Shown piece by piece: positions 7,886 through 53,400 of a stretch of DNA of 64,000 nt. Source of the DNA: Candidatus Aenigmatarchaeota archaeon (GTDB lineage Archaea; Aenigmatarchaeota; Aenigmatarchaeia; QMZP01); NCBI GenBank assembly GCA_016783545.1, contig JADHWJ010000006.1:888-64887 (forward strand), written 5' to 3'. Under the pieces are notes generated by a model, which worked only from the letters and a program-made list of their open reading frames with translations, searched no databases and was not told the origin of the DNA. The stretch's first letter is position 1. The number at the start of each line of letters is the position of its first letter. The translations under genes were made by a program, and so were the position numbers.

Positions 7886-8167
7886 TTACCCTAAGCTTTT
7901 GTCTAATTCTTCCAATGTGCTGGCAATTTCCTGTACATCAGAACCTACGTCCACAACAGCTTCTGAAGCCTCTTCACCACTTTTTATACTGCTTCCACCA
8001 AAGAACATACCAATTGGACTTCCCATTAAAAGAAAGCCTACGGCCCCTAGAAGAACAACGATAATAACTATTGCAATTAAAAGGCCTTTGCTGAGTTTAA
8101 TTGTCACATCTCCTTTGGCCTTAGTGTTCCGTATATTGTTAAGTATATTAGCTTTTTTCTTTGCCAT
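7886..8167 (-). CDS. small membrane protein, unknown function
   Basis: 93-aa ORF with one clear hydrophobic helix (LLIAIVIIVVLLGAVGFLLMG). It fits the intergenic space; the overlapping plus-strand ORF 7878..8303 is low-complexity. Confidence 0.45.
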   Translation of the reverse strand: MAKKKANILNNIRNTKAKGDVTIKLSKGLLIAIVIIVVLLGAVGFLLMGSPIGMFFGGSSIKSGEEASEAVVDVGSDVQEIASTLEELDKSLG

Positions 8168-27899: not shown

Positions 27900-28072
27900 T
27901 GGGAACTGTGGGATTATCTTTGGAAGGTTTTTAAATACATTTTATCAATTATAGTTCGTTACCTATAGATATTGTCTTTCATGTTCACAAGTTTCATTTA
28001 ATTTCAAAGAGAATCTTAGGCTTTCTTATTTGATTCTCTATAGAATTGATTTTTTCTCTTGTCTTTTCTTAA

Positions 28073-28145
28073 TCCCCTATAGCATATTTGGTTAATGCGC
28101 TCGGCTGTTCACCGAGAAAAGCAAGTTCGAATCTTGCAGGGGGGC
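28073..28145 (+). tRNA. tRNA-Asn(GUU)-like gene with atypical features
   Basis: Cloverleaf: D arm GCAT/ATGC, anticodon arm CTCGG-CTGTTCA-CCGAG, T arm GCAAG-TTCGAAT-CTTGC. Atypical points are U1-G72, U6-G67, an A7xA66 mismatch and C at position 37. The 3' end runs into CCA. Confidence 0.5.
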
Positions 28146-28570
28146 CAGGTCTTCTCCTGTAGAGGGAAGACAGTGTATCGACAACCGCTGTAATTTAAGG
28201 CTAGGCAGGATAGGACCATGGCCCATGGTGCGAGAGCTGCCTGCAAGGTTGGGGCATCAGGGAGAGGCTCCCTGATTAGCATCCGAACCAGGCGAAAAAA
28301 GGACTCGATGGTCCTTCTACGATTTCTTTAGCTCCCCCAGCGTCGGGAGCCGGAGAAGGTGGTTCCATTCAGTAGTGGGTTCTAATCCCACCCTTCTCCA
28401 TTAACAGTCTCCTTTCAGCACCGGGAAGTCCATACCCCCAATCCCTGGACCTCCTGAACATCACCGGGTCCCTGACATTGACCCAGTTAAGGCCCGATTA
28501 CATAGAGGGCAGGTCGAGAAAGGCGCGGGGGCCATGGGTGAGATCCTCCCCCTCACTCCCTCTGGCCCCT
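28141..28570 (+). ncRNA. X1: unassigned G+C-rich structured RNA candidate (~430 nt) between the tRNA-Asn-like gene and tRNA-Thr
   Basis: No credible ORF. The closing helix is GGGGCCAG (28141-48) with CTGGCCCC (28562-69). Multiple local hairpins include GTCTTCTCC-TGTAGA-GGGAAGAC, ACCATGG-cc-CCATGGT, TCAGGGA-gaggc-TCCCTGA, AAGGAC-tcgatg-GTCCTT and GCTCCC-ccagcgtc-GGGAGC. Strand is assumed from the flanking tRNAs. Confidence 0.45.
28352..28400 (+). other. tRNA-like minihelix (acceptor stem plus T arm only) inside X1
   Basis: GGAGAAGG-(15 nt)-GTGGG-TTCTAAT-CCCAC-CCTTCTCC-A. This gives an 8-bp acceptor-like stem stacked on a 5-bp T-arm with a 7-nt loop. There is no D or anticodon arm. Confidence 0.5.
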
Positions 28571-28574
28571 AAGA

Positions 28575-28649
28575 GCAGATGTAGCTCAGTGGTAGAGCGC
28601 ACTGTTGGTAACGGTGTGGTTGTGGGTTCGATTCCCACCATCTGCTCCA
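28575..28649 (+). tRNA. tRNA-Thr(GGU), genomically encoded CCA
   Basis: GCAGATG TA GCTC AGTGGTA GAGC G CACTG TTGGTAA CGGTG TGGTT GTGGG TTCGATT CCCAC CATCTGC T CCA. Confidence 0.9.
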
Positions 28650-28654
28650 ATTTA

Positions 28655-28727
28655 GCGCACATAGCTCAGTGGCCAGAGCAGAGCTTTCGTAAAGCTCAGG
28701 GCGTCGGTTCGAGTCCGACTGTGCGCT
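28655..28727 (+). tRNA. tRNA-Thr(CGU)
   Basis: GCGCACA TA GCTC AGTGGCCA GAGC A GAGCT TTCGTAA AGCTC AGGGC GTCGG TTCGAGT CCGAC TGTGCGC T. No CCA is encoded. Confidence 0.9.
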
Positions 28728-28729
28728 TC

Positions 28730-28958
28730 AGTGTGTGGTTACTGTGTGGATATGCGGCAACGTGCAACCCCTTCCACCAACAAGGCTCTATTCACCCATC
28801 CTAAAAACCTGGTGATGGGTAGTGTTTTCGCTCTCCATGGGGATAGGACACGCGAACAATAGTCACAACACAGCTCAGCACAAGCACAATGTGTTGTGAT
28901 TCGATTGATACACCTCTTTAAGGTTTAGAGTGAGACCTTGTTTCCCCAACTACACACA
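28730..28958 (+). ncRNA. X2: unassigned G+C-rich structured spacer (~230 nt) between tRNA-Thr and tRNA-Glu
   Basis: The closing helix is AGTGTGTGGTT (28730-40) with AACTACACACT (28948-58), 11 bp with one G-U pair. Internal hairpins are CCCATC/GATGGG, ACAACAC/GTGTTGT and AAGGT/ACCTT. No ORF. Confidence 0.4.
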
Positions 28959-28962
28959 CTAA

Positions 28963-29040
28963 GGTTCCATCGTCTAGCTAGGCCAAGGACACAGGATTCT
29001 CATTCCTGTAACACGGGTTCAAATCCCGTTGGGACCACCA
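28963..29040 (+). tRNA. tRNA-Glu(CUC), genomically encoded CCA
   Basis: GGTTCCA TC GTCT AGCTAGGCCAA GGAC A CAGGA TTCTCAT TCCTG TAAC ACGGG TTCAAAT CCCGT TGGGACC A CCA. Confidence 0.85.
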
Positions 29041-33973: not shown

Positions 33974-35005
33974 ATGGAAAAGGAAGAGAAAATTCTAGTT
34001 TTGAATGTAGATAGGGATAATGATATTGGCAGGAAGGCAAAGCAGGAAGGGCCTATAATAGGAAGAGAAAATATCCTAAAATGTGCAAATCTGCTTGGTC
34101 TAGCAGATCCAGAGGACTCTGATTTCAATGCATTATTTCAGGCAGCTAAGATATATGATGAAATGAAAAATAAGTACAAAACAGAGGTTGCTGCCATACT
34201 TGGACATCAAAATAGAGGTATAGATGCGGATAAAAGACTAAAGGAACAGCTGGAAGAGGTCCTGGAAAAGTTCAAAGCTGATTATGTTTTATTTGTTACA
34301 GATGGTGCTGATGACGAGCATGTTATGCCTATTGTGCAATCAAAAGTCCCTATATTGTCAGTTAGAAGGCTGCATATAAAACAGGCTGAACAATTGGAAT
34401 CTGGGTATTATAAGATAAAGGATTTTCTTGAAGAATCTCTTGAAAATCCAAAGTTTGCAAGACTTGTTTTTGGTCTACCTGCAATTGCACTGGTTTTGGT
34501 AGCTGTTTTTGGCATTGACGGCTGGAGGATTATAATAGGTTTGATTGGAATTTATCTGTTTGTAAAGGGTTTCAAGCTCGAAAGTTATATTCTAAATACA
34601 ATAGAAGAGCTAAGAGACAGCCTCACTCGTAAGAGATTTGCCTTCTTTATGTATATGATAGGCATAGCATTCTTCTTATTAGCTACATACAGGGGATATA
34701 CAACAATGCTGGAATTCTTAAGCATAGGTATCTTTGAAACAGTTGCAAGCTTTATTTCAGCAAGCATATACTTCTATTTCATTTCAGGTGCTGGTATATG
34801 GATAGCAAGGAATGTAAAGGATATGTCAAGGAGTGGTAGAAGGGTTGTTGCTGTTGTTCTATTTGGCTTTGCTATTGCACTAGTTGTCTATAATGCAACA
34901 GAGTTGATTATAAAGCCTGCACTACCGTTCTGGAATTTTGTAGGCTCTATTATAATAGGATTTGTATTGATGTTCATAGCAGTGCTATTAGAATGGAAAT
35001 GGTAA
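33974..35005 (+). CDS. archaeal DUF373-like membrane protein
   Basis: A soluble N-domain (KILVLNVDRDNDIGRKAKQEGPIIGRENILKCANLLGLADPEDSDFNALF) is followed by several TM helices. Confidence 0.55.
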   Translation: MEKEEKILVLNVDRDNDIGRKAKQEGPIIGRENILKCANLLGLADPEDSDFNALFQAAKIYDEMKNKYKTEVAAILGHQNRGIDADKRLKEQLEEVLEKFKADYVLFVTDGADDEHVMPIVQSKVPILSVRRLHIKQAEQLESGYYKIKDFLEESLENPKFARLVFGLPAIALVLVAVFGIDGWRIIIGLIGIYLFVKGFKLESYILNTIEELRDSLTRKRFAFFMYMIGIAFFLLATYRGYTTMLEFLSIGIFETVASFISASIYFYFISGAGIWIARNVKDMSRSGRRVVAVVLFGFAIALVVYNATELIIKPALPFWNFVGSIIIGFVLMFIAVLLEWKW

Positions 35006-35140
35006 CTAAGCTTAACTAATCGATTTGATGATTTAACCAATTATTCTATTTATTCTATCAATGCTTGGGCTCATTTGAAAATAGTTTTATGGGCACATAT
35101 AATACAAGCATTTAAATACATGTGCACATAAAGATATATT

Positions 35141-36076
35141 ATGTATCATGAAATTCAAATTAAAAATGGTGAAAAATATCACTATCTTACTGAGAATTTC
35201 AGAATAAATGATAAATGGAAAAAAATTAGGATCTATCTTGGGAAAGGAAATATAAAAAGAAAAAAATTTGAGAAATTAATATCTGAAAAGAAGGTTGAAT
35301 TGGAATTAAAATTAGATAAAGAAAAAAAGCTAAACGATCCTTTACTCTCATTTTTAACTGAGCAAGAAATAAAGAAAATTGAAAAGATGAAAAAACACTA
35401 TCAAAAATCAATGAAAAATATCGATAAGCAATTATGGAAAAATTATTATGAGTCGTTTATAACTGAATTTACATATGATACAAACGCAATAGAAGGTTCG
35501 TCTGTTACTTTACAGGAAACGGGTCTTATATTATTCGATAGGGTCGTCCCAGAAGGTAAAACAATAAAAGAGATAAAAGAAGTGGAAAATCATAAAGAAG
35601 CTTTTGATTTCATGATAAAACATGAAGAAGGTATAACAAAAAGATTTGTCTTACAGATTCATAAAAAACTTATGCATAATATTTTATGGGATTATGCGGG
35701 AAAATTTAGAGATGTTCAGGTTATAATAAGAGGTTCTGATTTTTTACCTCCTCCACCAGCGAAAGTTGAATCTGACTTCAAAACTCTTATGAGATGGTAT
35801 GGTTCTAACAAGAAAAAATACCATCCTGTAATTATTGCTGCTTATTTTCATTCTGCTTTTGAGTCAGTACATCCATTCAGGGATGGTAATGGGAGAACTG
35901 GGAGATTGTTATTGAATTTTATTTTAAAGAAAAATGGATATCCAATGATTGACATAAAAAATAAAGATAGGATGAAATATTACAATAGCTTGAAATCTGC
36001 TGAAAAAAATGGAGATTTAAGACCGCTTGTTAATTTGATTGTTAATTATTTATTAGAAAGTAAAATATGGATATAA
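35141..36076 (+). CDS. Fic-domain protein (AMPylase/Fido family)
   Basis: Carries the canonical Fic motif HPFRDGNGRTGR (in VHPFRDGNGRTGRLLLNFIL). Confidence 0.85.
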   Translation: MYHEIQIKNGEKYHYLTENFRINDKWKKIRIYLGKGNIKRKKFEKLISEKKVELELKLDKEKKLNDPLLSFLTEQEIKKIEKMKKHYQKSMKNIDKQLWKNYYESFITEFTYDTNAIEGSSVTLQETGLILFDRVVPEGKTIKEIKEVENHKEAFDFMIKHEEGITKRFVLQIHKKLMHNILWDYAGKFRDVQVIIRGSDFLPPPPAKVESDFKTLMRWYGSNKKKYHPVIIAAYFHSAFESVHPFRDGNGRTGRLLLNFILKKNGYPMIDIKNKDRMKYYNSLKSAEKNGDLRPLVNLIVNYLLESKIWI

Positions 36077-36083
36077 TTTTAAT

Positions 36084-37184
36084 TTAATGTCTGAAATGTC
36101 TCATTCCAGTGAAAAGCATGGCCATACCGTATTCATTTGCCATGTCTATTGCCTTCTGATCGCCGTCAGAGCCACCTGGTTGTATGATTCCATCTACCCC
36201 ACATTCACCAGCAAGCTCTACAACATCAGGAAATGGTATGAATGCATCAGAACCCACAACTTGTGGCTGAAGATTATTACTATTCATCTCTAGAGCCAGT
36301 CTTGCTGAGTTTATTCTTTTCATCTGACCAGCACCATTACCAGTAATCTGCATAATACCACCCGACATCCTAGCAGCAGTAATTGCATTGGATTTTGTAT
36401 GTTTTGCAACTTTCCAGGCAAAATCATAAAGGCTCGCTTGGTCAGGGTTTGGTATTTTTTCAGTAACAAAACCAACAGTTCTTTCTTTTCCGCCATACTC
36501 CACTTCAAATGGTGGACCCCAAATATCCATAATATTATTAATGCCTTCTGGGTATGTTAATCTATCTGTTTCTTGTGTAAGCATGCCACCTTCTATAGCT
36601 CTCGTTTCGTAAAGCTCTCTTCCTGGAAGATGGAGATTTGGAACTCTCAAAACAACTGTTTTTCCTCTTCTCTCTTTTAGCCTTGCAATAGCTCTTTCTG
36701 TATAACCAGGAGCTATGATAATATCAAATTTTTTCTTTTTGAGTACATCCTCAACTAAATCATCATCCATTGGAAAACTAAGAGCCATTATTCCACCAAA
36801 AGCAGCTTCAGTATCTCCTTCATAAGCATGTTCAAAAACACTTCTTTGTAAAGTGCTACCTGGATAATATGCTGCACCACACGGATTTGTATGTTTTATT
36901 ATAACAACAGCACTACCATTAGGAAATTCTCTTACAAGACCCATTGCAGCGTCTGCATCCAGAAAATTATTATAACCCATTGGTCCGCCACTCAAATGTT
37001 CTGCGGTTGCTACACTAGGTCCTTCATAGCCATCTTTTACAAAACGAGTTCCTTTTTGATGCCAATTTGCTGCATATCTTCCAAATTCTTCACCATCAAC
37101 AAATAGATCGGTTTCTGTTTCAACATTTCGGGGTCCTTGAAACCTTTTTTGAACATAAACTTCTTTTGGAAATCTTACTGGCAT
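36084..37184 (-). CDS. purH: AICAR transformylase (PurH, formyltransferase domain only)
   Basis: Contains IIKHTNPCGAA and the C-terminal GSDAFIPFPDVVELAGECGVDGIIQPGGSDGD...FTGMRHFRH. Confidence 0.85.
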   Translation of the reverse strand: MPVRFPKEVYVQKRFQGPRNVETETDLFVDGEEFGRYAANWHQKGTRFVKDGYEGPSVATAEHLSGGPMGYNNFLDADAAMGLVREFPNGSAVVIIKHTNPCGAAYYPGSTLQRSVFEHAYEGDTEAAFGGIMALSFPMDDDLVEDVLKKKKFDIIIAPGYTERAIARLKERRGKTVVLRVPNLHLPGRELYETRAIEGGMLTQETDRLTYPEGINNIMDIWGPPFEVEYGGKERTVGFVTEKIPNPDQASLYDFAWKVAKHTKSNAITAARMSGGIMQITGNGAGQMKRINSARLALEMNSNNLQPQVVGSDAFIPFPDVVELAGECGVDGIIQPGGSDGDQKAIDMANEYGMAMLFTGMRHFRH

Positions 37185-37186
37185 AA

Positions 37187-38032
37187 TTAATCAGTTTCCC
37201 ATTTATTTCTAATTGCTATATCAAAACCACCAGGTTTTTCAACAACAGCTACTGCAGAAACAGTTAAATTCTGTTCAAGTTCTTCTGGAGGAGCACCCAT
37301 ACCAACCTCATCTGGTCCGCTATTTGCAAACATGTCTTCATATGCTGCTTGGGCAAGTTCTTCTGCTCCTTTCCCAGGTAAATTTAATTCAAAGAAAGCA
37401 TCTTCAGGTACTACAGGAGTAACCAAATCATCTGTTCCTTCTCTACCAACATAAGTTGATACCATTTGAAATACCCCAGGATTTATTCTTAAATCATCAA
37501 TTTTATGTTCAACAACAAGTATTTCACCTTCCTTTGTAACTATACCCAAAGCAGCATTTCTAGCTAAATCAGCTGCAGATGCTATTCTTGGTGTTTGTGC
37601 TATTTTTTCACCATTTTCAGGATCTGTTCCATCTACCTCTGCACCCCAGCTAGCAAGTGCATATTCCATAGCATCTTTTAAGGAAAATTCATGATCGCCT
37701 ATAATATAAGATGAATATAATAAACTACTATGCCTGCCATTTGAACCTGCAATAAAATCCATATCAGGATCTACCATAAAAGCAGGATATTGTATGTTTG
37801 CCACATTTTTCATTTGTTCTTTTCTTATTTCTTCTGCTTTTTCAGGTGGTACATGTGATGGTATATGCAGCAGCATCTCTACTATAAGTGGAACTTTAGT
37901 ATGCCTTCGTGCCATCCTGTATTGACTAGTAGGACTTCTTCCAGTAACTCTATATACTCCTGCAATATTTTCATTTTCATCTGCTCCAATACCAATCACT
38001 CTTCCAGGGTAGTCCTTAAGCATAATTATCAC
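37187..38032 (-). CDS. purO: archaeal IMP cyclohydrolase (PurO-like)
   Basis: YPGRVIGIGADENENIAGVYRVTGRSPTSQYR and TPRIASAADLARNAALGIVTKEGEILV parallel the Methanocaldococcus PurO pattern as recalled. Adjacent to purH. Confidence 0.65.
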   Translation of the reverse strand: MIIMLKDYPGRVIGIGADENENIAGVYRVTGRSPTSQYRMARRHTKVPLIVEMLLHIPSHVPPEKAEEIRKEQMKNVANIQYPAFMVDPDMDFIAGSNGRHSSLLYSSYIIGDHEFSLKDAMEYALASWGAEVDGTDPENGEKIAQTPRIASAADLARNAALGIVTKEGEILVVEHKIDDLRINPGVFQMVSTYVGREGTDDLVTPVVPEDAFFELNLPGKGAEELAQAAYEDMFANSGPDEVGMGAPPEELEQNLTVSAVAVVEKPGGFDIAIRNKWETD

Positions 38033-38354
38033 TTTATTATTACATGCTAAGTTTTTTATAGCAATGTGTTACAGAGAGGCTACATAACTCACTTAATGGT
38101 TCGATACATGCCGTTTTCTTCTGCACTTCCCCTGCACACACACTCATTAGAGGTGAGTTTAATCCTCACTTTAAAGGGCAAAATTAGTATATTATTAAAA
38201 ATATAGTTTCTAAAATATTTAATTAAAAATATTAATTACAATAGTTTTATTATAATGGTTATATTTAAATATATATAATAAATAATATATTAAGGTTTTT
38301 ATATCATTAAATCAAAAATAATATACTGAAAAAAGTGAGAGTTTGTATTCGTAG

Positions 38355-38389
38355 AACCGGACATATGGGGTCTATGCATATCGGTTTTG
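38355..38389. repeat. repeat L (left copy; inverted relative to R at 40657-40702)
   Basis: The reverse complement caaaaccgatatgcatagaccccatatgtccggtt aligns to caaaaccgatatacttagagccta--tgtccgtttt at about 29 of 35 positions. Confidence 0.6.
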
Positions 38390-38422
38390 CTTGGCAGAAA
38401 ATAACAATAAAAAGGTGATAAT

Positions 38423-38761
38423 TTGACTAAAGAAAATAGAATTTTAGAGGGTTTGTTTTTGAGGGAGAAGCCTGCAAAAATACTTTTAGGTCTAAAGCTT
38501 TCTAAATCTGGCACAGTATATACATCAATACTTTCTAAAGAGGCTGACTGCACGTACTCGCACACAATAAAAATACTTAACATGCTCAATAGTATGGGAT
38601 TGGTTAATTTTGAAAAAACAGGAAGAATCAAAAAAGTAACTCTGAGTGATGAAGGCTGGGACATTGCACACAATCTTGAAGCAATTCTAAAGAAGTTTAT
38701 CCAGGTCGAAAATAAAGCCGGAAAAAAAGTTAAAGAAGAAAAGAAAAAGGCAAAGAAATAA
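38423..38761 (+). CDS. small winged-helix DNA-binding protein (TTG start) with Lys-rich tail
   Basis: GTVYTSILSKEADCTYSHTIKILNMLNSMGLVNFEKTGRIKKVTLSDEG is a MarR/ArsR-like wHTH. An AAAAGGTGA SD lies upstream. Confidence 0.6.
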   Translation: MTKENRILEGLFLREKPAKILLGLKLSKSGTVYTSILSKEADCTYSHTIKILNMLNSMGLVNFEKTGRIKKVTLSDEGWDIAHNLEAILKKFIQVENKAGKKVKEEKKKAKK

Positions 38762-38775
38762 AAAGAAGTAGCTCC

Positions 38776-38811
38776 GGAATCTGAGATTCTCGTTTTCGTA
38801 AAAACGGACAT
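38776..38811. repeat. repeat L2 (second left-oriented partial copy)
   Basis: The reverse complement tgtccgttttta-cgaaaacga-gaatctc matches R (tgtccgttttta-tg-gaatctc). It also contains the internal palindrome GGAATCT-g-AGATTC. Confidence 0.55.
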
Positions 38812-38816
38812 TTTCC

Positions 38817-38849
38817 TATAGTTTACAAAATGATGAAATGTAAACTATA
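38817..38849. promoter_or_regulatory. perfect 11-bp inverted repeat TATAGTTTACA-(11 nt)-TGTAAACTATA upstream of recombinase 1
   Basis: Read directly from the sequence. A third copy of the arm lies at 40737-40747. Confidence 0.6.
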
Positions 38850-38888
38850 TAAGTATAAAACACTTAAATTTTAATTAAAGTGGAAATT

Positions 38889-39512
38889 ATGGGAGAATTT
38901 GCTTCTGTTCCGATGAAAGACCCTAGGGGATATCTTAAACCAGCCCAGGCTAACAAGTTGATTAATGCTACAGGTAATATAAGAGATAGATTAATATTCC
39001 AGCTTATGTATAGATGCGGAAGAAGGGTATCTGAGGTTCTCCTGCTTACTGAAGATGATATATTATGGAACGATAGAAAGATAATATTCACAATTCTTAA
39101 AAGGAAAAGACCGGTTAAAGAATTAAAACCAGTTGATTCTGAGACCATAGAACTTCTAAGGCGTTATCTGAACAAAAAGGGTAGGGTAAAGGGATTAAAA
39201 AGGCATAGAAAAGACAGCAGACTTTTTCCTATAACAAGGCAATATGTTTTCAAGCTTGTAAGAAAACTTGGCAAGGAAACAGGGATAGAAATGGTTGGTT
39301 TAAAGAAGATCCATCCACATCATTTCCGTCATAGTTTTGCTGTCCATGCTGTAAGATCAGGAGTAAATTCTGCTGAGGATCTTAGGAAACTTCAGATGTA
39401 TATGGGTCATGCAAACATATCAACCACTGCACATTATCTACAGTTCTCTCCAGATGAACTAAGAAGCCTTGTAGATGGTATGTGGAAGAAAGGAAAAAGA
39501 AATGAAAAATGA
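38889..39512 (+). CDS. tyrosine recombinase, short Xer-like (catalytic domain only); the ORF is open from GTG 38880
   Basis: Contains RDRLIFQLMYRCGRRVSEVLLL, HPHHFRHSFAVHAV and LQMYMGHANISTTAHYLQ (R..H-x-x-R..H/Y pattern). Confidence 0.8.
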   Translation: MGEFASVPMKDPRGYLKPAQANKLINATGNIRDRLIFQLMYRCGRRVSEVLLLTEDDILWNDRKIIFTILKRKRPVKELKPVDSETIELLRRYLNKKGRVKGLKRHRKDSRLFPITRQYVFKLVRKLGKETGIEMVGLKKIHPHHFRHSFAVHAVRSGVNSAEDLRKLQMYMGHANISTTAHYLQFSPDELRSLVDGMWKKGKRNEK

Positions 39513-40569
39513 AGACTATATTGAATTGATGAAGATATACAAAACGTCAGCAAAAACCATAGACAGAGTGTGTGAAATTTTCTCTGGTGGTGATAAGAGA
39601 TATGTTGATTTGGAATATGAGATTATAGTAGCTGGTTTTTTGGATAATGGTGCAATTTCTATTAGGGAAAAACCAATAGAAACAGAGGCTAAATCAAAGG
39701 AGGATATCAAAGGTCCACAAAAGGATTTGAAAGCATTGGCTTTAAAGCTATTAGAAGATCATGATTTCAAGCTAGTTGCTTTTGAAAGGGGTTTTGCAGG
39801 AGGTATAGCTGATATTATAGCAAAAGGTAATGGGAAAAATATAATAATTGAATGTGGTCCATGCAACCTAATAAAGGCTATAGATTATTTATCAGTAGAG
39901 AATACAATTCTTTGGATACTAAAAGCAGATGTTCTTTACATCATTGAAAGGTATAAAGACTGGGGCTCATTCTATCGGTTTCATGAATCGAATCAAGAGG
40001 AAAAAAATAAAAAAATTATGAGCTCTATAAATTTTTTTGATTCTAATTTTAGAAGAAAAATACCTAGAACTTTAACAGAAGAAGAGATAGGTGAGATGTT
40101 GAGGTATTCTGAAGATAATAAAAGAGATAACATGCTAATGAAATGTATGTATTTTCTTGGATTGAAAAATACCGAAGTACAAAATCTGAGGGGAGAAGAT
40201 TTCGATTTTGAAAAAAGTATAGTAAAGATAAGGGGTCGCAGTATACCGATTCCTGAAGACTTCCTTAAAGAAATTTTAAAATGGAAAAAAGAAGGTCCTT
40301 TGTTTTCAGGAAGATCTAATGGTCTTATAAGTGATAGACATATACGCAGGATAGCGAAAAAATATGCTGAACTAGCAGGTGTCCGGAAATACGAGGAAAT
40401 CCACCCTCACACTCTACGTCATTCTTATGCCACTCACTTACAAAACAATGGTACACCTCTTAATGTAATTCAAGCTCTCTTAGGTCACTCTCGCATTGAA
40501 ACCACTACCATATACACTCACCTTGGTATTGAAAATCTGAAACGAGAAGTAGATAAAGTATTTAAATGA
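39502..40569 (+). CDS. tyrosine recombinase with an N-terminal extra domain (possibly nuclease-like); alternative start at 39475
   Basis: The C-terminus carries RDNMLMKCMYFLGLKNTEVQNL, HPHTLRHSYATHL and LLGHSRIETTTIYTH. The N-terminal ~180 aa contain FERGFAGGIADIIAKGNGKNIIIECG. Confidence 0.75.
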   Translation: MKNEDYIELMKIYKTSAKTIDRVCEIFSGGDKRYVDLEYEIIVAGFLDNGAISIREKPIETEAKSKEDIKGPQKDLKALALKLLEDHDFKLVAFERGFAGGIADIIAKGNGKNIIIECGPCNLIKAIDYLSVENTILWILKADVLYIIERYKDWGSFYRFHESNQEEKNKKIMSSINFFDSNFRRKIPRTLTEEEIGEMLRYSEDNKRDNMLMKCMYFLGLKNTEVQNLRGEDFDFEKSIVKIRGRSIPIPEDFLKEILKWKKEGPLFSGRSNGLISDRHIRRIAKKYAELAGVRKYEEIHPHTLRHSYATHLQNNGTPLNVIQALLGHSRIETTTIYTHLGIENLKREVDKVFK

Positions 40570-40656
40570 ATGTATATTTTATTAGATATTCTTTTTATAA
40601 TATATGTTAAAGTATATACTTAATTTATTTTTCTTCGTCGTGAGACTTAATTTTCA

Positions 40657-40702
40657 CAAAACCGATATACTTAGAGCCTATGTCCGTTTTTATGGAATCT
40701 CG
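40657..40702. repeat. repeat R (right copy, inverted relative to L and L2)
   Basis: See L and L2. Sequence: caaaaccgatatacttagagcctatgtccgtttttatggaatctcg. Confidence 0.6.
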
Positions 40703-40736
40703 GGTGTGATAGTTAAATCTACTATATTTTTTATTA

Positions 40737-40747
40737 TATAGTTTACA
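40737..40747. repeat. third copy of TATAGTTTACA
   Basis: Exact 11-mer shared with 38817-38827, and in reverse complement with 38839-38849. Confidence 0.5.
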
Positions 40748-40959
40748 TTAAATATATTATAATAGATAGTATAAGATATATATTATAAATACTATAAGTT
40801 TTTTATTTTTTTCAAAATTTACTAGTGAGAACCCTCACACAAAGTGAGACTTAAGTAGGAGGCTAAGAAGCGAAAACCTCAAAGGGAGAGTAGTTGTGAA
40901 GGGAGTGTGGAGAATGGGTATAGAGGAGCCTGGTGAGAGAAAAACAGTATAGTAAGAGC

Positions 40960-41334
40960 TTAAAAAGAAGGTAAATCAAAGTAAGAGTACCTAACTGCTT
41001 CTATAAATTCAAGAGCAACTCCTACATTCTCAGCAACACTATCATCAGAAGTGAGATCATCAACCCTTTTCACTCTTCCAGTTGTTGTGATTTTTGCCAA
41101 AGGGGGATCATCAGAAACAGCAGCAGGCAAGCCTATACAAAGATTAACTGTATCACCAGGGTTTAGATTTTTTCTATTAGCACGAAAATAAGCACCACCA
41201 GTGCTTAAGTCAGTAGTAAATGCATTATCTAACAATCTATTCTCTTGACAATCATATATCCCTATAGGAAGTGCTAATTCTAGCCTCCTATACCTTCGTC
41301 TTTCAGGTTCTGTATATCCTTTAAATTTGCTCAT
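40960..41334 (-). CDS. PilZ-domain protein
   Basis: ERRRYRRLE (RRxxxR) and DLSTGG (DxSxxG) lie at the expected spacing in a 124-aa protein. Confidence 0.7.
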   Translation of the reverse strand: MSKFKGYTEPERRRYRRLELALPIGIYDCQENRLLDNAFTTDLSTGGAYFRANRKNLNPGDTVNLCIGLPAAVSDDPPLAKITTTGRVKRVDDLTSDDSVAENVGVALEFIEAVRYSYFDLPSF

Positions 41335-43798: not shown

Positions 43799-44473
43799 AT
43801 GAAAATCTGGGTGCATAGTTATCATGATAAAAAAGAGATAGAGAAGAAAATAAGAGAACTCGGTGCAAAGGTTTCTTGGTGGTATCCTGATTTTATTATA
43901 TGCTATGGTGGAGATGGAACTGTTTTGGAAGCTGAAAGAAGCTGGCCAGGAGTGCCTAAGATACCAATAAAATTCAGCAAGATCTGTGCTGGTTGTAAAA
44001 ACTATAAGCTAAAGGATTTGGATTATATCATTCCTATGTTAGAGAGGGGCGAATATGATATAGGTGAAAAGGACAAGGTAGAGGCTGTTATTGGGAATAG
44101 AAAACTTGTTGGCCTTAATGAGGTGCAGGTGCACAATGCAGAACCGTTTGTGGCTCTTAGATTTTCTGTATCGGTGGGAAAGAAAAAAATTGATTGTATT
44201 GGTGATGGTGTTGTTGTTTCAACTCCTTATGGTTCTGGTGCTTACTATCATTCAATAACAAGAAAGAGTTTTTCTAAAGGAATATATCTTGCTTTTAACA
44301 ATACAACCGTACAGAAAAGACCAATCAATATTACTGGCAAAGTTAAGGTAAAGATACTTAGGGAAAACGCACTTCTTGTTGCAGACAACCGCAAAGCAAT
44401 GATTAGACTGAAACCAGGGGATGAGATTTTGATTAGAAAGGCAAAGGACAGGGCAAAATTCGTGGAGATTTAA
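43799..44473 (+). CDS. nadK: NAD kinase (short form)
   Basis: Contains GGDGTVLEAER, GLNEVQVHN, DGVVVSTPYGSGAYYHS and ADNRKA. Confidence 0.8.
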   Translation: MKIWVHSYHDKKEIEKKIRELGAKVSWWYPDFIICYGGDGTVLEAERSWPGVPKIPIKFSKICAGCKNYKLKDLDYIIPMLERGEYDIGEKDKVEAVIGNRKLVGLNEVQVHNAEPFVALRFSVSVGKKKIDCIGDGVVVSTPYGSGAYYHSITRKSFSKGIYLAFNNTTVQKRPINITGKVKVKILRENALLVADNRKAMIRLKPGDEILIRKAKDRAKFVEI

Positions 44474-45639
44474 TAGTTTAATACAACGCTTAGTTCTTCT
44501 GGTCCAATGTCAAATTCTTCCAGGAATTCCCTCTTCCTTCCTTTTATTATCATTTTCAGGTATGGTATATTCTCTCTAATGTCTTTTGGAGAACTATGCA
44601 TCTTTTTTACCATTTTTTTATAAAAGCTGTCTCTAAGCGCCCTTTTGAAACGCGTTCTTCCTAATTGGGCAATCTTTTCAGGGTATTGGTAGGGAATAAA
44701 CCCTCTTTGTGGATTAGTTCCTACGGATACTCCTACCATAAGGTCAGACATCAACCCTTTGAATCTCCAATTCTGCTGTTTGTGCACCCTTGATCTGAAT
44801 ATGTCTGCTTTTGAAAGAAGTTCATATGCACATGCGATATCTTCAGCTGTTTTGAACACTTTTGGTATGTTTGTTTCTATCCATTGAAAGACTTCATCAG
44901 GATCCTTGTCTGAATCATATATGGATTTTCTTGCAGCCTTTATGTTCTGCGAAAAAAATATGGTTGGAAGTATATCATAGATGTCTTTTAGCCTTTCTCT
45001 GAAACCAAGGCTTTCAAGGTCTTCTCCTAGGTTTGAGGCTGTCTGAAAATCTGTTATTGCAGAACGCATATCCCCATTTGAAAACCCTGCTATACTATCA
45101 ATAATTTCATCCTTTATTTTCAAATTTTCCTTTTCTATTATCTCCCTTAGTTTTTTTGATATTGATGCTGATCTTATCTTTTGAAATTTCACATGTTTGC
45201 AAGATCTTTTCAGACCAGAAAGCTTTGAGCTATATGGATCATTTGCAATCAAAATAATCGGAAAACTGGACCCCTTTATTATTTTGAGTATGGCCGAACC
45301 AGCTCCCCTGTCAGAACGTCCTGATATGCCATCAACTTCATCTATAAGTATTATCTTTCCTTTATGGAATAATGTTGTCTGTCTTGATGCATCTGAAAGC
45401 TGTAATTCTATCTCTTTCTTTGTTCTTTTGTCAGAGGCATTCAGCTGGACAAGCTGTAGATTGTTTTCCGTTGTATATGTCTCTGCAAAAAGGGTTTTTC
45501 CAATGCCGGGTGGACCTGATATAAGAAGGGCTTTTCCTTTTTTCCATTCGTTTAGAAATTGCAGGGCTTCAGATACGCATTTTTCCTGCCCCACTATTCC
45601 TGCTGTTGTTTCTGGCCTATGCCTATCTACCCAGAGCAT
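44470..45639 (-). CDS. rfcL: replication factor C large subunit
   Basis: Contains LWVDRHRP, ALLISGPPGIGKT (Walker A) and ILIDEVDGI (the DEVD box typical of the large subunit). Confidence 0.8.
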   Translation of the reverse strand: MLWVDRHRPETTAGIVGQEKCVSEALQFLNEWKKGKALLISGPPGIGKTLFAETYTTENNLQLVQLNASDKRTKKEIELQLSDASRQTTLFHKGKIILIDEVDGISGRSDRGAGSAILKIIKGSSFPIILIANDPYSSKLSGLKRSCKHVKFQKIRSASISKKLREIIEKENLKIKDEIIDSIAGFSNGDMRSAITDFQTASNLGEDLESLGFRERLKDIYDILPTIFFSQNIKAARKSIYDSDKDPDEVFQWIETNIPKVFKTAEDIACAYELLSKADIFRSRVHKQQNWRFKGLMSDLMVGVSVGTNPQRGFIPYQYPEKIAQLGRTRFKRALRDSFYKKMVKKMHSSPKDIRENIPYLKMIIKGRKREFLEEFDIGPEELSVVLNY

Positions 45640-47405: not shown

Positions 47406-50400
47406 CTATCCTGTTATATTTATTATTATATTCCTTATACCAGACCATGATGAGTTTGCATCTGAAGTTACAGCCTTAACCTTCCAAAAATATGTTGCAT
47501 CTGAAAGGGCTGATGAAGTATAGTTAAGTGTTGAAAGTGAATGGTTCTGTTGTGTTATGTTTCCTACTTCAAATCCAGTTGAACTGGATATTAATATTGC
47601 ATATGTTATTGTATCATTGTCTGAGTCTGTTGAAGCAGTCCAATTAAAAGATGTTGTATTATCCGATGTTGTGCTTCCATTTGTTGGCTGAGTCAAATTT
47701 GGAGCAGTTGGTGGGCTATTTAGTACTGTTAGCGCACTGGAATTGCTCCAAGAAGAGTTTCCATTATCATTTCCAAATGACACTGAACATGTCCAATTTT
47801 CCCCTTTACTTGTATTACCTGATAGCAATCTATTTATTGTTAATGTATTATTTGGGGCAGTTCTTGAACCAGAATAGTTCAATGCCCCGTTCTTGTACCA
47901 TCTATAGTAGGCTGTTAGTAATGAATTTTCATTATTTACGCCTATTGTATAACACACTAAATTATCTGTTGTGTAGTTATTTGATGAAGTTGCGTTGATT
48001 ATTATATAAGAAACCGATGGTGTGGTAGTAGCGTTAACTATAAACGCGCTTATATCGGTCACATTCCATGTACCAGCTGAATTGTTTGCATACACTCTCC
48101 ACGAAATTATTGTACCGCTTGAATAATTCAATGTTTTGCTCACATTTGACCAATTATTTGTAAATGCTGTCCATGTATCATTGACCCAGCTTCCAGAAGC
48201 ATTCCAAGAGAATATGTAACCAGAAAGGTTTACATTGGTTTCCCATAGAACTGAGAACTCAGCACTTGCATTCTCTAGTGTTGTATTCACACCCGTACTA
48301 ACCCAAGCAACATACGGCTGTGCTGTCCTATTCAAAGTAATTACTGTTTCATTTGTTCCATAATTCCAATCTGAATCATAGCAATAGAATTTTATACCAT
48401 AATCTTGATTTTGTGATGTATTCAATGAAAGATTGTATGTATGCGCTGTTCCACCTGTTGATACCTGACCAGACCAGCCTGAAATCCATGAATATGTGTA
48501 GACACTTCCGTTGTAACTAGTATTGCAAGCTGCTGAAACATTACCTGAACAATACCAGCTATAATATCTATCATAGTTCACAATCATTATATCACACCTT
48601 GCATCCTCTGTCGTAGAGGCATTGAAGAATATATTATTTTCTGTTATTACCTGTGCCAATGTTGGTGTGTTTATTGAGACATTTGGTGCTACCATATCCT
48701 TTATCTTAAAGTAGCCATTTTTTATTATAGAAGAATCTGTGCCGTTTGTTATATATACTTTTACATAATAATCTCCACCTTCCCATAAACCACCAGATGG
48801 AACCAATTTTATATAACCAGCCGTGTCAATCTCATTATTACCTACTGATTCCCCTGTTGAAACATTAACAACGCTCCATGTAGCACTTGAATATGTCCTA
48901 CAGCTGTCATCCCAGCACCCATCTGGGCTTTTTGAAAAAAGAACATTTGTGACATTGACCGCCACATTGCCTCCAGAAAGGTCTTGTAATGAATATAGAT
49001 ATATCGTAATATTGTTTGGAAATGAGGTTGCATACTGATAATTTCCATTACTATCTACAGCATACATATATCCTCTTAATGTTGGTCTCGCATTGAAATA
49101 AACACTGCTCCAGTCATCTATTCTAGTTGAATCATTGTCATCTGTAAATTCAGTGTAAAAATAATTATACCCTTCTTCCCAGCCGTCTAGAGGAGCTTCT
49201 ACAACAACAGCTGAAGTGCCGTTTATCAAACAGCTTGAAGAAGTTCTTGAATTGCAGCCATTCACACTGAAATTATAATAGATATTTGAAGGCCATGACG
49301 ATCTATATACAGATGTAAGATTACCGGTTTCAGGTTGACTGCTTATTGGATGACTTAGTGTTGCATTGAAAGTTAGATTACCTGACAGACCAATAGTATA
49401 TGGTGAAGTTCTTGAGAGACTTATTGTAAACGGAACTGCTCTGAAACTTATCCAACCATCCTTGGTTTCATTTGTATCAATATCTTTAATTGTCACTGTT
49501 ATTGATACCCATCCAGATTCCCATCTACCACTCGGTGGTTCTATTGTTAGATTTATAATACTGCCATTGAATATTGCTGTTCCATTGCCTAGTGTATAAT
49601 TAGTTATATCTGTTCTCAATTCGCCTGCATAATTCCATGTTCTTTTGATTATGCTATCTATACTATAATTCCCTTCCTGGATTGTATATGGCCATGTCCA
49701 TCCAGGCTCGTATATTGTCAATTCCACTGTTAAGTTGTTATCAGTTGCTATGGTATATGGATTTGCAGTGGCCTGAATCCTAAACGGCTCCACATTGAAC
49801 CAAAGCCAGCCTGTCACTTTTTCGCTTTCATTGTTTATCATAATAATTTCGCCATTGTAAGATCCCCCTGGCCAGGTTCCATTGTTATAGGTAACATTCA
49901 ACATTGAACGACCTGTTACATTCAGATCATTAGATCCAACTATACTGATGTTAATATCTTCTGGATAATTATAATCTATCTGTTGCCAGGTATTGGAATT
50001 CCATCTGCGAAGCACCATATCTGAAATAGTTGTATTTACAAAATCCACTGTTGAATAATAAGAATAATAATATTTTCTGTTCTTTGTTGTTGTTACATTG
50101 AAATAAACAGGACCCCTTCCTCTTGTATTATATTCGTAGGTTCCGTTTTCATTCATGGGTTGTGTGTCTATATAGAACGCTAATGCACTAAACCAGCCCC
50201 ATCCTGTCTCTGTTCCATTTAAATCCAAAACAACCTGATAATATCCAGAATCCCATCTACCAGATACTGGTGTTATATTGATTATGTAGTTATCATCACC
50301 TGTGGATGCAGACCAGATATCTCTGTTTGACTGATTTACTGTAATTGTTGTAGCAGTGTAATTTGCTGCTGGTACCTCTTTTGGAGGCCATGTGGTATAA

Positions 50401-53400
50401 AATTCCAGTTTCTTTATACTTATATCAACGTTCCCACCAAGCGAACTTCCATAAGTACCCCAGGCATCACCAGCATTCATTATCTTTACATACAGGCTTA
50501 CATTTTCTCTTGTATTGAACTGGTATTTGTATTGATATGTACCGCTAGAAAGTTCAACTGGGTTTGCGTATGCATACCAATTTCTTATCTCAAACCATAG
50601 CTCCCCATAATCACTTTCTCCAGAAGAGCTATCAGTTCCCTTTATAATAGCAGAATAATAACCTGGTTTCCATGTCCCGTTTGGTGCTCTTGAAGCACTT
50701 AGTGATATTGTACCTGCTCCACTTGATATTGTTGAAGCTGACAGACCTGTTGTATTATAATTATAGGTCACTGGCTGCCACATCCATTCTCCAGGTGTTC
50801 CTCTATATTGGACACTTTCAAGCGTAACTGTTCCGTCTATACCACTTCTGCTACTCCACCAGCCACTGCCAGCAGAATACATGTATATTGTGAAATTGAT
50901 ATCACCTGTTGGTTTATTGCTCCATAAATTACTCCATCCATAAATATAGAAAGCACGTGCTTCAAATGTTCCAAATCCTTCATCACTTGTTACGCCATTG
51001 GGTCCTGTTATTTCAACAACAACCCTGTATTTTCCACCATCCCATAAATTATCATATGGTTTTATGACACACATATACCCACCCGTCTGATCAATTGGAT
51101 AGCATATGGATGCCGTGCTGTTCAGGGTTTCTGTATTCCCATTCCGCATATTTTTGACACCTTTTATTGTAATTGTTGCGTTATTAATCGCTGTTTTCGT
51201 TGTATCTGCCTGGCATGCACCACCATATCCATAATAATAACCAGCAGAACTTGTTGTTAAATTAGCTAGTGATAAACTCGATGCATCCTTGGTCTGGTGA
51301 ACCTTCATCTGAAGATATATTGTATCTGTTGTTTGGAATTGCCAATAATAATCACTTTGAGTTGTATCTGAACTTGCCTTTGCAGCAGTGCAGATTTCAT
51401 ACGGTTTTATTCTGAGTCTTGCCCATGTATTTGCAGATTTATTGTTTACAAACATCTCAACAGTGAATAGGCCGCCTGTACTTGGTGGGTCTAATATTAC
51501 CAGACTACTTGTTGAGTTCCATCCCCATTCCAGATCAGTATCTGTAAAGTTCATTAGACTCCAATTTGACTGATATGTATAATTTTTCTCAGTCCCATCC
51601 TGATATTTTATAGAAACAATGTCAATATCAGTAACATTCACATTGGATGTCTTGTTCTTTGCGGTTACCTTTATGTATGCAAATTCTGACATTGAAAATA
51701 TATCTCTTTTGTTTTCATTGACGTCTGTTGATAGTGCAGAAGCCCTTATTGTTGTAACAGTTAATAGTTTCTCTACTGACTGTGTATCATCGTTATTAGC
51801 AAGCGTAACAGAAAGTGTATAAGAGCTCTGTATACTAGGCATGGTTAAATTAAATGTGTATGTCCCTGTACTAGAATTATAAAATGCTGAACTATTTGTC
51901 ATCTGAGCACCGAAATTATTTTTAAGAGTAATAGTGAAATTGTTATTGAGACCTGATATTGCGCTTCCGTTTCCTCTTTCTATAACACTTGCATCGAAAT
52001 ATACAGTAGAGTTAGCAAATGCTGTATATCCATATTCAAAACCTGAATTAGAACTTGTTTTAGATACTGATAATGTCCAATCCCTTACCTGGAAAATAGC
52101 TGTTGAATTTATTGTCTCTCCTCCAATTTTTCTCACACTCACCTTTGTCTTATATTCACCGACTGTAAGATTATTGTTTATTGTGAATGGGACTTTGTTA
52201 GAGTAACTATTATTCGAATCCAAAGAAAATCCTGTAAGTGTGCTTATCAGCGTTCCGTTTGAATTGTAAATAGAACTGGAAACAGTGTAATTACCAGAAG
52301 CTGTAGTTGAATTATAGCCTACTCTTACTTCAACATAACCTGTATCACCTTTCTTGAAAACGTTTTTTATGCTTGTTCCTGTACTATCCTTCATAAAAAC
52401 ATCAACATCAAAGGCTACCACACTAAATGTTGTGTAACCCACATAATTATTTGCCTCTAGTATGTATCTTCCTGATGTTGAAGGTGCGATTAAATTTGTA
52501 TAAACGCATAAACCATTCGCATCTGTTGTACAGCTAAATGTATTAAGAATTTCAAAATCTGAATCTCTAAGTGTTCCATTAATACTGACATTTGCAACTG
52601 GAAGATCATTATCACCAAGATATTGGATTGCTCTTGCAGTAAGTGTTATGTTAGAGCTTGGATAATAAATAGCTTTGTTTGGCTCCAATCTTATATCATC
52701 AATTGATTGATTGATTACATTAATTGTAATCACTGAATATGTTGTTGCGCTTCCGTTTGTGTAAGTGGCATTCAATGTATAATTACCAGTCGTACTTGGA
52801 GCATTAATCACTGTTGCAGAAGGGTAATAATCACTTCTTGAATAGTACTCACCATTTGAACCTGTTGTAAATGTGTAATTCGAAATAACATCATTAGAGA
52901 TATTCAATAGGCTAAGGTTTATGCTGACACTTGGCACCCCTGTCTCAGATGATGCTGTTATGTTATAAAGATACCCGTAAATTTCTATTCTTTCTCCAAG
53001 ACCAAATATAGTCTTTGAAACCATTAGCTGTAGATCATAGATAATTGCACTGATTGCTGTTGAGGTGGCATTTGTAGTGAAATTATACATACCTGTTGTA
53101 TTGCAATTGAAACTATCACAAGATGTTACATTGTAATAATATGTTGTGTTTGATGAAAGGCTGCTTAGGCTTATATTATGAGATAAAACCTGAGTGGAAT
53201 TTGTAACACTAGATGCTAGACTGGAATTTATTCCATAAGAAACAGTGGAATTTGCAATTTCGTCTGTGTCCCAGACTATATCCGCTGTTATTGTGTCTGT
53301 TGCTGCACTTACATTTTCTATAACCGGAGTTGATGTATCAACAGAAAATGATAATGTTGTATTATCAGATACATATGTGAAACTGTTATTTCCGCTTGCA

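Follow-up and report, generated by a model that had tools for sequence, protein, structure and literature searches.

Resemblance to described recombination systems

Some tyrosine recombinases are encoded beside their sites: the site lies beside the gene in the Xer/dif modules XerS/difSL and XerH/difH, and in Tn4430, the internal recombination site (IRS) lies beside tnpI. Here we consider a locus that shares features with both systems. It is part of a stretch of 64,000 nucleotides from Candidatus Aenigmatarchaeota archaeon (assembly GCA_016783545.1, contig JADHWJ010000006.1, positions 888 to 64,887), which we call the window. The locus consists of three co-directional genes between purO and a PilZ gene, which encode a small winged-helix-turn-helix protein (wHTH) and two tyrosine recombinases (int1 and int2), and of several repeated sites: L, L2, R, and a palindrome (Table 1). 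A preliminary description of this DNA had proposed an invertible or integrative module. Our favored explanation, which is tentative, is instead a self-regulated resolution locus of the Xer/dif or TnpI/IRS kind, made of split parts and fixed in the chromosomes of DPANN archaea.

To our knowledge, the DPANN archaea, whose genomes are tiny, have no genetic systems and no described mechanism by which their chromosomes are segregated and resolved. We found no description of the locus in the literature. It is absent from a review of the tyrosine recombinases of archaea that appeared in 2021 and in which Nanoarchaeota, Aenigmatarchaeota, and Woesearchaeota go unmentioned (PMC8371274). The locus joins a new winged-helix family, recombinases that lack a DNA-clamping domain, and precisely arranged sites, and the partners of the sites can be read from natural co-variation. 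With its short proteins and sites of 25-31 bp, it offers a testable minimal recombination system, and in uncultivated archaea it could mark a special position on the chromosome.

The dif sites of both bacteria and archaea have an 11-6-11 format, and archaeal dif is flanked by AT-rich sequence and inverted repeats (PMC2958812). The catalytic domains of int1 and int2 are most like those of XerA, XerC, and XerD, which are their best matches in both NCBIfam and the PDB. Relatives with a single int2-type recombinase carry a 28-bp palindrome in the 11-6-11 format immediately upstream of the gene, and each DPANN locus has one complete core. However, int1 and int2 score far below the cutoff of the XerA model NF040815 (124.7 and 136.7 bits, versus 220), the DPANN recombinases have no core-binding domain at their N terminus, and they have a separate and obligatorily linked partner, wHTH. 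Also, the two recombinases of the window belong to different subfamilies, and one has a nuclease-like domain at its N terminus; the window's core site is 9-7-9 (or 11-11-11), not 11-6-11; and the dif site of Thermococcales is not beside xerA. As the preliminary description had noted, a short recombinase that is paired with a longer one departs from the standard XerA/dif arrangement.

In Tn4430, the IRS combines an inverted-repeat core with direct-repeat motifs, and these additional recombinase-binding motifs beside the core give selectivity (PMC2847244). Such accessory motifs work without host factors. Similarly, the DPANN site is directly upstream of the recombinase gene, and seven int1-type relatives have inverted repeats and then one or two direct repeats, with a 22-bp period. 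However, the sequence relation to TnpI is that of the general recombinase fold only; the DPANN locus lies outside any transposon, in a conserved neighborhood; the window has lost the direct repeats and has its core in the opposite polarity; and Tn4430 has no counterpart of the wHTH partner or of the G-box arrays that are described below.

The FimB/FimE recombinases have in common with this locus a length of about 200 amino acids, a catalytic domain only, and an inverted-repeat layout of the sites. FimB/FimE-type models match int1 and int2 weakly (for int1, E = 2.7e-13, and 50 bits versus a cutoff of 222). In contrast to the FimB/FimE systems, the flanking repeats of the DPANN locus are not identical, the recombinase genes are inside the putative segment rather than beside it, and the assemblies and relatives that we compared showed no orientation polymorphism. 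Another parallel is MpsA/MpsB of SGI1, which pairs a recombinase-fold protein with a small, separately encoded DNA-binding protein (PMC6414798). Both systems have a cis site upstream of the operon, but MpsB is like the N-terminal domain of a recombinase while the DPANN partner is a winged helix, and MpsA is a relaxase that acts at the origin of transfer (oriT) of a mobilizable island. We saw no genes for conjugation next to the DPANN loci. Judged by score cutoffs, domain content, matched repeats, and transposon context, the locus falls outside the XerA, FimB/FimE, and TnpI families.

Pairing of sites and proteins across related loci

We compared the locus to its relatives (numbered with the prefix L), whose contexts were taken from contigs that encode homologues, from a one-genome-per-species scan (33 loci), and from a metagenome pattern scan (50 loci, of which 25 are in this module). 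Modules with wHTH and a recombinase were found at about 45 loci from two phyla, Nanoarchaeota and Aenigmatarchaeota, and they vary in which recombinases they contain (Table 1).

First, co-variation across these loci shows int1-type enzymes going with a 25-bp core, which is at 38821-38845 in the window. GTTTAC-N13-GTAAAC is upstream of all nine of the int1-type genes that we examined, and its 7-bp center (TCATCAT/ATGATGA) is invariant across nine lineages. The core is also present in L048, L104, and L105, which have no ATGTCCG near the module. We interpret it as a 9-7-9 site, GTTTACAAA-ATGATGA-AATGTAAAC. In the seven of the nine loci that have direct repeats, these are copies of GTAAAC that follow the core and end 8-18 nt before the ATG, with a TATA-like sequence between them. 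In the window and in L013, which is its closest relative, the core stands alone, and its center is in the opposite polarity (ATGATGA). By sequence, the palindrome at 38817-38849 is the only complete core in the window, and it is the element that is most likely to be the true crossover site. The preliminary description had treated this palindrome as a secondary feature.

Second, the int2-type enzymes go with ATGTCCG sites, again as judged from co-variation. Where an int2-type enzyme is the sole or the first recombinase, ATGTCCGrAAA-N6-TTTyCGGACAT (28 bp) is found upstream, mostly by 30-70 nt and by up to about 330 nt. This palindrome is exact in 10 GTDB loci and near-exact in 3 more, and it is present in 25 of the 50 hits from the metagenome pattern scan. 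There are also composite half-sites, with ATGTCCG, 9 or 18-19 nt, and then CTCAC. The two spacings differ by one turn, which leaves both boxes on a single face of the double helix. Composite half-sites have one orientation to the left of the recombinase genes and the other orientation to the right. Equivalents of L are directly upstream of wHTH in L014 and L025; the L2 element is after wHTH or before int1 in L001, L004, L013-L018, and L023; and ATGTCCG is 2-8 nt past the stop codon of int2 in L001, L004, and L015. In the 64 kb of the window, ATGTCCG or CGGACAT occurs 3 times, always in the module.

Third, wHTH goes with CTCACT/AGTGAG boxes, or G-boxes (AAAGTGAG), which co-occur with it as mirror-symmetric polar arrays around two AT-rich blocks. 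Every ATGTCCG half-site has such a box beside it as well. Across 17 loci, the density of G-boxes in the flanks was 12-fold above background. The left flanks had 38 copies of CTCACT and 4 of AGTGAG, and the right flanks had 36 of AGTGAG and 5 of CTCACT (P of about 1e-7 for each side). An AT-rich block that is equivalent to the left one is upstream of wHTH in every related locus that we mapped. L049 has kept wHTH, the CTCACT/AGTGAG boxes, and the AT-rich block; it has no ATGTCCG site, and no Phage_integrase gene was called within 8 kb of its wHTH. Across loci, L, L2, and R are copies of a composite element that is tied to int2-type enzymes and to wHTH; the repeats in the preliminary description are, by this co-variation, functional elements of the recombinases and wHTH.

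These sites could also be operators only. In that case, the recombinase-fold proteins and wHTH would repress their own operon and an antisense promoter, and no recombination would take place. L is between the AT-rich promoter region and the start of wHTH, the right arm of the palindrome at 38817-38849 overlaps the likely B recognition element (BRE) and TATA box of int1 (AATGTAAACTATATAA), the direct repeats in relatives bracket a TATA-like sequence, and R is directly downstream of an inward-facing promoter-like copy. A precedent is MrpR of phage SPbeta, which is a recombinase-fold repressor (PMC10516654), and many members of the recombinase family have weak matches to MrpR_C_cat from Pfam. Furthermore, int2 of the window lacks the lysine loop (see below). 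However, both recombinase families retain the Arg, His-x-x-Arg, His, and Tyr motifs across two phyla, such invariance as the center of the int1 core shows is characteristic of crossover regions and not of operator spacers, and the 11-6-11 palindrome has the exact dif format (PMC2958812). Autoregulation is also compatible with recombination. Overall, we consider regulation without recombination to be unlikely.

Protein features

Both recombinases match Phage_integrase in Pfam (E = 5e-30 for int1 and 8e-27 for int2), and their Arg, His-x-x-Arg, His, and Tyr motifs line up with those of XerA from P. abyssi. int1 also has lysines in the hairpin region. PF00589 was the only Pfam match: the usual N-terminal core-binding domain (SAM-like, PF02899 or PF13495) is absent from both proteins. 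The start of int2 overlaps the end of int1 by 11 nt (if translation begins at 39502) or 38 nt (if at 39475), and because the genes overlap, the two proteins are likely made together.

The first 181 amino acids of int2 did not match any family in Pfam. In a predicted structure (pLDDT, or predicted local distance difference test, of 92), this N-terminal domain of about 180 amino acids has three helices and an alpha/beta core; the catalytic domain begins at about 40045. The Foldseek matches of the N-terminal domain were weak (E = 0.03-1) and all were PD-(D/E)xK nucleases, with NucS, MGME1, AF1548, Bax1, and Hjc among the best. This superfamily is expected to have an alpha-beta-beta-beta-alpha-beta core with Asp...Glu-x-Lys as catalytic residues. 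In int2, D113 and K134 never vary and E126 almost never does, but Gly takes the place of Lys in the Glu-x-Lys part. In L025, an int2-type N-terminal domain is encoded as a separate open reading frame (ORF). In the window, int2 has a 6-residue deletion (in the 39990-40010 region, residues ~250-256) where its homologues have a GKxxK(D/E)R beta-hairpin. This int2 may be catalytically impaired, and int1 would then do the cutting.

For wHTH, the nearest solved relative is AF_1382 (2qvo, E = 1e-6), and there is a weak profile match to AspA. Its recognition helix, CTYSHTIKILN, is nearly invariant in the family.

We also noticed a conserved small ORF upstream of int1, at 38832-38876 in the window and at 7893-7940 in L013, which begins with ATGATGAAA (MMKCKLYKYKTLKF / MMKSKLYKYKNIKIK). 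In both loci, it is the flipped center of the core that creates the ORF. It may be a leader peptide or a coincidence.

A proposed resolution locus

In the explanation that we favor, a resolution locus of split parts, int1, probably with int2, would exchange strands at the single complete core. wHTH would stand in for the missing N-terminal DNA-binding domain, or else it would be an architectural partner. L, L2, and R would be accessory or operator sites that hold extra copies of the proteins, and these copies would make resolution selective and would repress the promoters that they overlap. We infer this division of labor (strand exchange at the core, an accessory or operator role for L, L2, and R, and wHTH as a substitute for the clamp or an architectural partner). 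The left AT-rich block probably carries the promoter of wHTH. By analogy, the role of the locus would be the resolution of chromosome dimers or a related upkeep of chromosome topology.

Several points weigh against a resolution locus. The function is assigned by analogy, and neither a recombination product nor an empty site was observed. Some Nanoarchaeota have a canonical XerA (P0104), and tyrosine-recombinase folds can be pure repressors, as in MrpR (PMC10516654). An essential role sits poorly with the distribution of the family because it is far from universal in public data (323 clusters of wHTH, 137 of int1, and about 46 of int2-type enzymes). In the window itself, int2 is missing the loop that normally bears the catalytic lysine, both the 28-bp palindrome and the direct repeats known from relatives are lacking, and the core is flipped as compared to most relatives (ATGATGA instead of TCATCAT). 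Finally, if the arms of the core are taken as 11 bp, then the spacer would also be 11 bp, and this exceeds what a canonical crossover region allows.

Repeats in the window and inversion

All of the repeats in the preliminary description exist, at or near the positions it gave. In an inverted, gapped alignment, L (ATT-CGTAGAACCGGACATATGGGGTCTATGCATATCGGTTTTG) and its partner in R score 24. We compared this to 2000 dinucleotide shuffles of the two local regions: none of them reached 24 (mean, 11.5; maximum, 22), so even for AT-rich DNA, the similarity of L and R is beyond chance. The core of L has no further match that scores 15 or more in the 64-kb window. L2 matches L in direct orientation across a 30-nt element (TGAGAnT..TTCGTAnAAnCGGACAT), with a score that was reached by 27 of the 2000 shuffles. 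The inverted match of L2 to R (18 nt at 89% identity) is by itself not significant, as 501 of 2000 shuffles reached it in a restricted shuffle test; conservation across species makes it convincing. The 11-bp palindrome is exact, and so is the third copy of its arm (40737-40747), which extends to 16 nt (AATGTAAACTATATAA) and faces inward within the right AT-rich block as a copy of the promoter-like arm of int1. The GTGAG...CTCAC pairs are at 38153-38169 and 40825-40838, and the flanks are as extreme as described: 38156-38350 and 40702-40833 are the only stretches of the window with at least 86% A+T over 120 bp.

The limits of L and R did need to change. The two repeats are real, but they are better set as composite elements, at 38335-38389 and 40640-40709, and each of these holds a second, degenerate half-site that is back to back with the first (ATATCGG/CCGATAT). 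The composite half-site elements are at 38335-38364 in L, 38783-38811 in L2, and 40680-40709 in the right half of R. In every one of these three elements, a single good recombinase half-site stands beside a GTGAG box.

The preliminary description had suggested an inversion switch. In such a switch, int1 and int2 would act on R and either L or L2 and would turn around the segment that holds their own genes, which might or might not include wHTH. The pairing of promoters with genes would then change. The half-sites are inverted around the recombinase genes in the window and in many relatives, and this geometry (CGGACAT to the left, ATGTCCG to the right) is kept in distant ones. The copy of the int1 promoter-like arm in the right AT-rich block faces inward, and both recombinases have the weak FimB/FimE-type matches mentioned above. 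In addition, some inversions did take place during evolution, as the unit of recombinase plus site is flipped with respect to wHTH in both the type-e clade (L032-L037) and, separately, L051/L068. However, L has 12 nt between CCGATAT and TATGTCCG while R has 10 nt, with unlike sequences, and L2, L, and R differ beside CGGACAT. Since the spacers differ and each element has just one good half-site, L, L2, and R are not like matched crossover sites. L and R are also absent from L013, the closest relative.

Within clades, orientation was constant. Other assemblies of the window's own species gave contigs that agree with it: L010 and L011 match the window at the wHTH-L2-int1 junction, and L008 matches it at the int2-R-PilZ junction. 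Orientation is also uniform within L001-L003, within L004-L006, and within L051/L068; the last two, which originate from two samples, are 100% identical and do not differ in orientation. The preliminary description had looked to the presence of both orientations as the mark of a switch, but across about 45 loci we found one orientation per clade, which by its reasoning points to binding or operator sites. Assemblies show majority states only, and a rare minority orientation could go unseen.

Two independently assembled Logan contigs from SRR12042682 (L008 and L009) break exactly at L2, as might be expected from inversion. They abut with an exact overlap of 30 nt (CTCGTTTTCGTAAAAACGGACATTTTCCTA, at 38789-38818), which indicates a branch in the assembly graph between the ATGTCCG half-site and the int1 core. 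However, the break is at 38788/38819, while an exchange between L2 and R predicts about 38797, and the contigs that run through R and L are unbroken. The break is also no more than 2 nt from the point where L004 has an inserted ORF. Because the position does not fit an exchange of L2 with R, the contig through R is unbroken, and the inserted ORF of L004 is so near, the branch is most simply read as an insertion at the level of strains or as a point variant. When JGI metagenomes were searched with the L2 junction sequence, there were no hits. Inversion is unsupported in this locus, and we consider it very unlikely.

Two other candidates from the repeat analysis were rejected. First, a look-alike of the composite site lies inside int2 (40379-40410). 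Some of its codons (GTC, CGG, CCT, and CAC) are unusual for a genome with 35% GC content, but the look-alike is present in just 9 of about 33 listed copies of int2-type genes, so it is probably not essential and we do not consider it to be a functional site. Second, we considered a terminal inverted repeat of 270 bp: when the entire intergenic region on the left was matched with the reverse complement of that on the right, the alignment scored 50, versus 22 ± 3.6 for shuffles. However, a control in direct orientation scored 45, and the same was true in most relatives. Because this control is nearly as high, the signal is mostly due to AT-rich composition, and we withdrew this repeat except for the core shared by L and R.

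Distribution and vertical inheritance

wHTH belongs to a family of 323 clusters (at 90% identity), of which the best 120 are 61-99% identical to the protein from the window. For int1, there are 137 clusters with E ≤ 1e-20, and the 120 of these that were listed are 39-100% identical, most of them 60-78%. The homologues of int2 are annotated as Nanoarchaeota or Aenigmatarchaeota. Among contigs, the exact int1 protein was found only in the known one.

In 20 of 39 loci, from both phyla, a DUF373 gene is upstream of wHTH and on the same strand (many of the other contigs are too short). DUF373 abuts the module directly in most relatives. In the window, 33974-38032 separates them and contains a Fic-domain gene and the purH/purO pair (with weak scores, as for divergent families); L074 has the same order, DUF373-purH-purO-wHTH, and in L001, purH/purO is on the other side of the module. 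The composition of the module, including its GC content, is about that of the surrounding window, and in the more GC-rich L004, the codons of wHTH are GC-rich. The flanking repeats are inverted, not direct, and no transposase or terminal repeats were noted in the flanks. We noticed no direct-repeat ends, although no dedicated search for att sites was made, and the direct repeats that we found were short or AT-rich. Because DUF373 adjoins the locus so often, we conclude from this synteny that the locus is vertically inherited at a fixed place in the chromosome and is not mobile. The integrative module of the preliminary description is not borne out.

A related alternative is that the locus is an ancient, domesticated mobile element or a docking site, whose core and ATGTCCG sites would serve as attachment sites for plasmids, viruses, or small cassettes. 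Extra small genes do lie at varying points between the conserved sites, depending on the lineage: in L001, two zinc-ribbon ORFs precede L2; in L004, an ORF of 100 amino acids separates L2 from the core; and L047 has seven small ORFs. L025 and L016 have arrays of sites in the same orientation, and the Logan branch at L2 would fit a strain-specific insertion that is flanked by a repeated site. Also, L050, a bacterial contig that is plasmid-like, has a 28-bp palindrome upstream of its short recombinase, and this palindrome is identical at 28 of 28 positions to that of the archaeal locus L035. However, a small, two-helix membrane protein that lies between the sites is conserved (L004, L016-L018, and L093) and hence is not variable cargo, DUF373 synteny is as described above, and no partner site was found on an element: one scan of viral contigs gave a bacterial contig only. 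A docking site is quite unlikely, in our judgment.

The small membrane protein (66-105 amino acids, with two predicted helices and the motif YYLNCY) is encoded after the recombinase, between the right-hand ATGTCCG and the AT-rich block.

The same-orientation sites in L025 and L016, with their small ORFs, also suggested an integron-like cassette array. We rejected this because at least one of the ORFs is the conserved membrane protein and because no IntI-type features were found.

As for L049, it has three direct copies (at 7957, 8336, and 9016) of another repeat, CTACTACAAGTAAAnGTTGGAGT. These bracket wHTH and a 203-amino-acid protein with an acylphosphatase hit in Pfam, and they may belong to a different partner system for the same wHTH.

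Polar boxes and chromosome replication

Polar arrays at a fixed chromosomal place bring to mind RTP/Ter of Bacillus, which is a polar fork trap. Accordingly, the arrays of wHTH sites might mark a replication terminus or origin, with the recombinases stationed there. The G-box arrays are strongly polar and mirror-symmetric, they surround the only two extreme AT-rich blocks in 64 kb, and wHTH is similar in size to known terminator and centromere-binding proteins, as well as having the weak match to AspA. Replication and repair genes are nearby: an RPA-like gene is upstream in four contexts (L047, L048, L103, and L104) and a RadA-like gene in two (L047 and L048), L048 has PolB, and the window has the large subunit of RFC. 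Against this, Orc1/Cdc6 is missing from the Pfam listings of eight related contexts (5-8 kb on each side, or 3 kb in L103-L105), and none was called between 28.4 and 50.6 kb of the window, which led us to reject a replication origin. We also rejected an AAA+ gene (44470-45639) as an origin gene: it is the large subunit of RFC. The one complete chromosome, CP070804.1, has a length of 742 kb, and its copy of the locus is near 494 kb. We view a replication landmark as highly improbable.

A broader form of the resolution explanation is that, throughout the DPANN lineage, this split maintenance locus replaces or supplements XerA/dif, and that the arrays of wHTH boxes act as directional signals for the unlinking of sister chromosomes, like the FtsK-orienting polar sequences (KOPS) or Ter. 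We think that this is rather unlikely.

Probable related cassettes on bacterial plasmids

Plasmids of the Acinetobacter type carry short recombinases (about 195 amino acids, with the catalytic domain only) that have an 11-6-11 palindrome upstream (Table 1). In L050, the recombinase is followed by a 232-amino-acid ORF that is ParA-like (assigned by eye and not by a family search), and in L101, the recombinase is 1.4 kb from an annotated RepB gene. When the L050 recombinase was compared to plasmids, its close relatives were an Acinetobacter group (57-61% identity) and one from Aeromonas; the rest were generic recombinases. No wHTH gene was found in L050 by tblastn (the only plasmid locus that was searched this way), and the plasmid loci have single CTCACT/AGTGAG matches but no G-box arrays. 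By sequence, this looks like an uncharacterized plasmid resolution cassette with a layout related to the archaeal one. The shared 11-6-11 site and short recombinase suggest an old cassette of recombinase plus site that spans both domains.

Features of the locus and its surroundings

Table 1. Coordinates and arrangement of the genes and sites (positions are those of the window unless a locus is named)
Feature	Position or loci	Strand	Description
purO	37187-38032	-	Left neighbor of the trio
Left G-box cluster	38088-38172		CTCACTT at 38088; GTGAG-TTTAATC-CTCACTTT pair at 38153-38172
Left AT-rich block	38156-38350		Up to 93% A+T
L	38335-38389	-	GTGAGAGTTTGTATTCGTAGAACCGGACAT (G-box and int2-type half-site), 13 nt, degenerate half-site ATATCGGTTTTG
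wHTH	38423-38761	+	112 amino acids, TTG start; no Pfam model
L2	38783-38811	-	GAGATTCTCGTTTTCGTAAAAACGGACAT, long-type composite: degenerate G-box and int2-type half-site
int1-type core site	38817-38849	+	Perfect 11-bp arms, 38817-38827 and 38839-38849
int1	38889-39512	+	207-amino-acid tyrosine recombinase, catalytic domain only, Xer-like
int2	39502-40569 (start by homology; alternative, 39475)	+	N-terminal domain and Xer-like catalytic domain
Look-alike of composite site inside int2	40379-40410	+	GTGTCCGGAAATACGAGGAAATCCACCCTCAC, coding for GVRKYEEIHPHT
R	40640-40709		GTGAGACTTAATTTTCACAAAACCGATAT (G-box and degenerate half-site), 11 nt, ATGTCCGTTTTTATGGAATCTCGGGTGTGA (int2-type half-site, long type)
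Right AT-rich block	40702-40833		Inverted copy of int1 core arm and TATA-like sequence (TTATATAGTTTACATT, 40734-40749)
Right G-box cluster	40825-40937		GTGAG-AACC-CTCAC at 40825-40838; AAAGTGAGAC at 40841-40850; GTGAG at 40933
PilZ gene	40960-41334	-	Right neighbor of the trio
wHTH-int1-int2	Window, L001, L004; L007		L007 is cut before wHTH
wHTH-int1-int2, without the int2 N-terminal domain	L013, L103
wHTH and int1 only	L048, L104, L105
wHTH and int2-type only	Many loci
Two tandem int2-type genes	L014, L024, L028
Long int2, then inverted wHTH	L032-L037		Type-e clade
wHTH with no recombinase called nearby	L049
Small membrane protein	L004 5844-6086; L016 8653-8970; L017 8650-8889; L018 8730-8930; L093		Absent from the window
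Plasmid recombinase loci	L050 10415-11115; L101 2410-3088; L102 1995-2779		Palindromes beginning ATGTCCGAAAA, ATGCCCTAAAA, and ATGTCTGAAAA

Elsewhere in the window, there are very large ORFs at 467-5305, 12502-16062, and 47406-53945 (1612, 1186, and 2179 amino acids), the last of which has just a faint hit to MG2. Giant surface-type proteins are typical of DPANN genomes. A search of the whole window with Rfam matched only four tRNA genes (Asn-GTT, Thr-GGT, Thr-CGT, and Glu-CTC), which are at 28072-29040 in a GC-rich stretch and are unrelated to the module.

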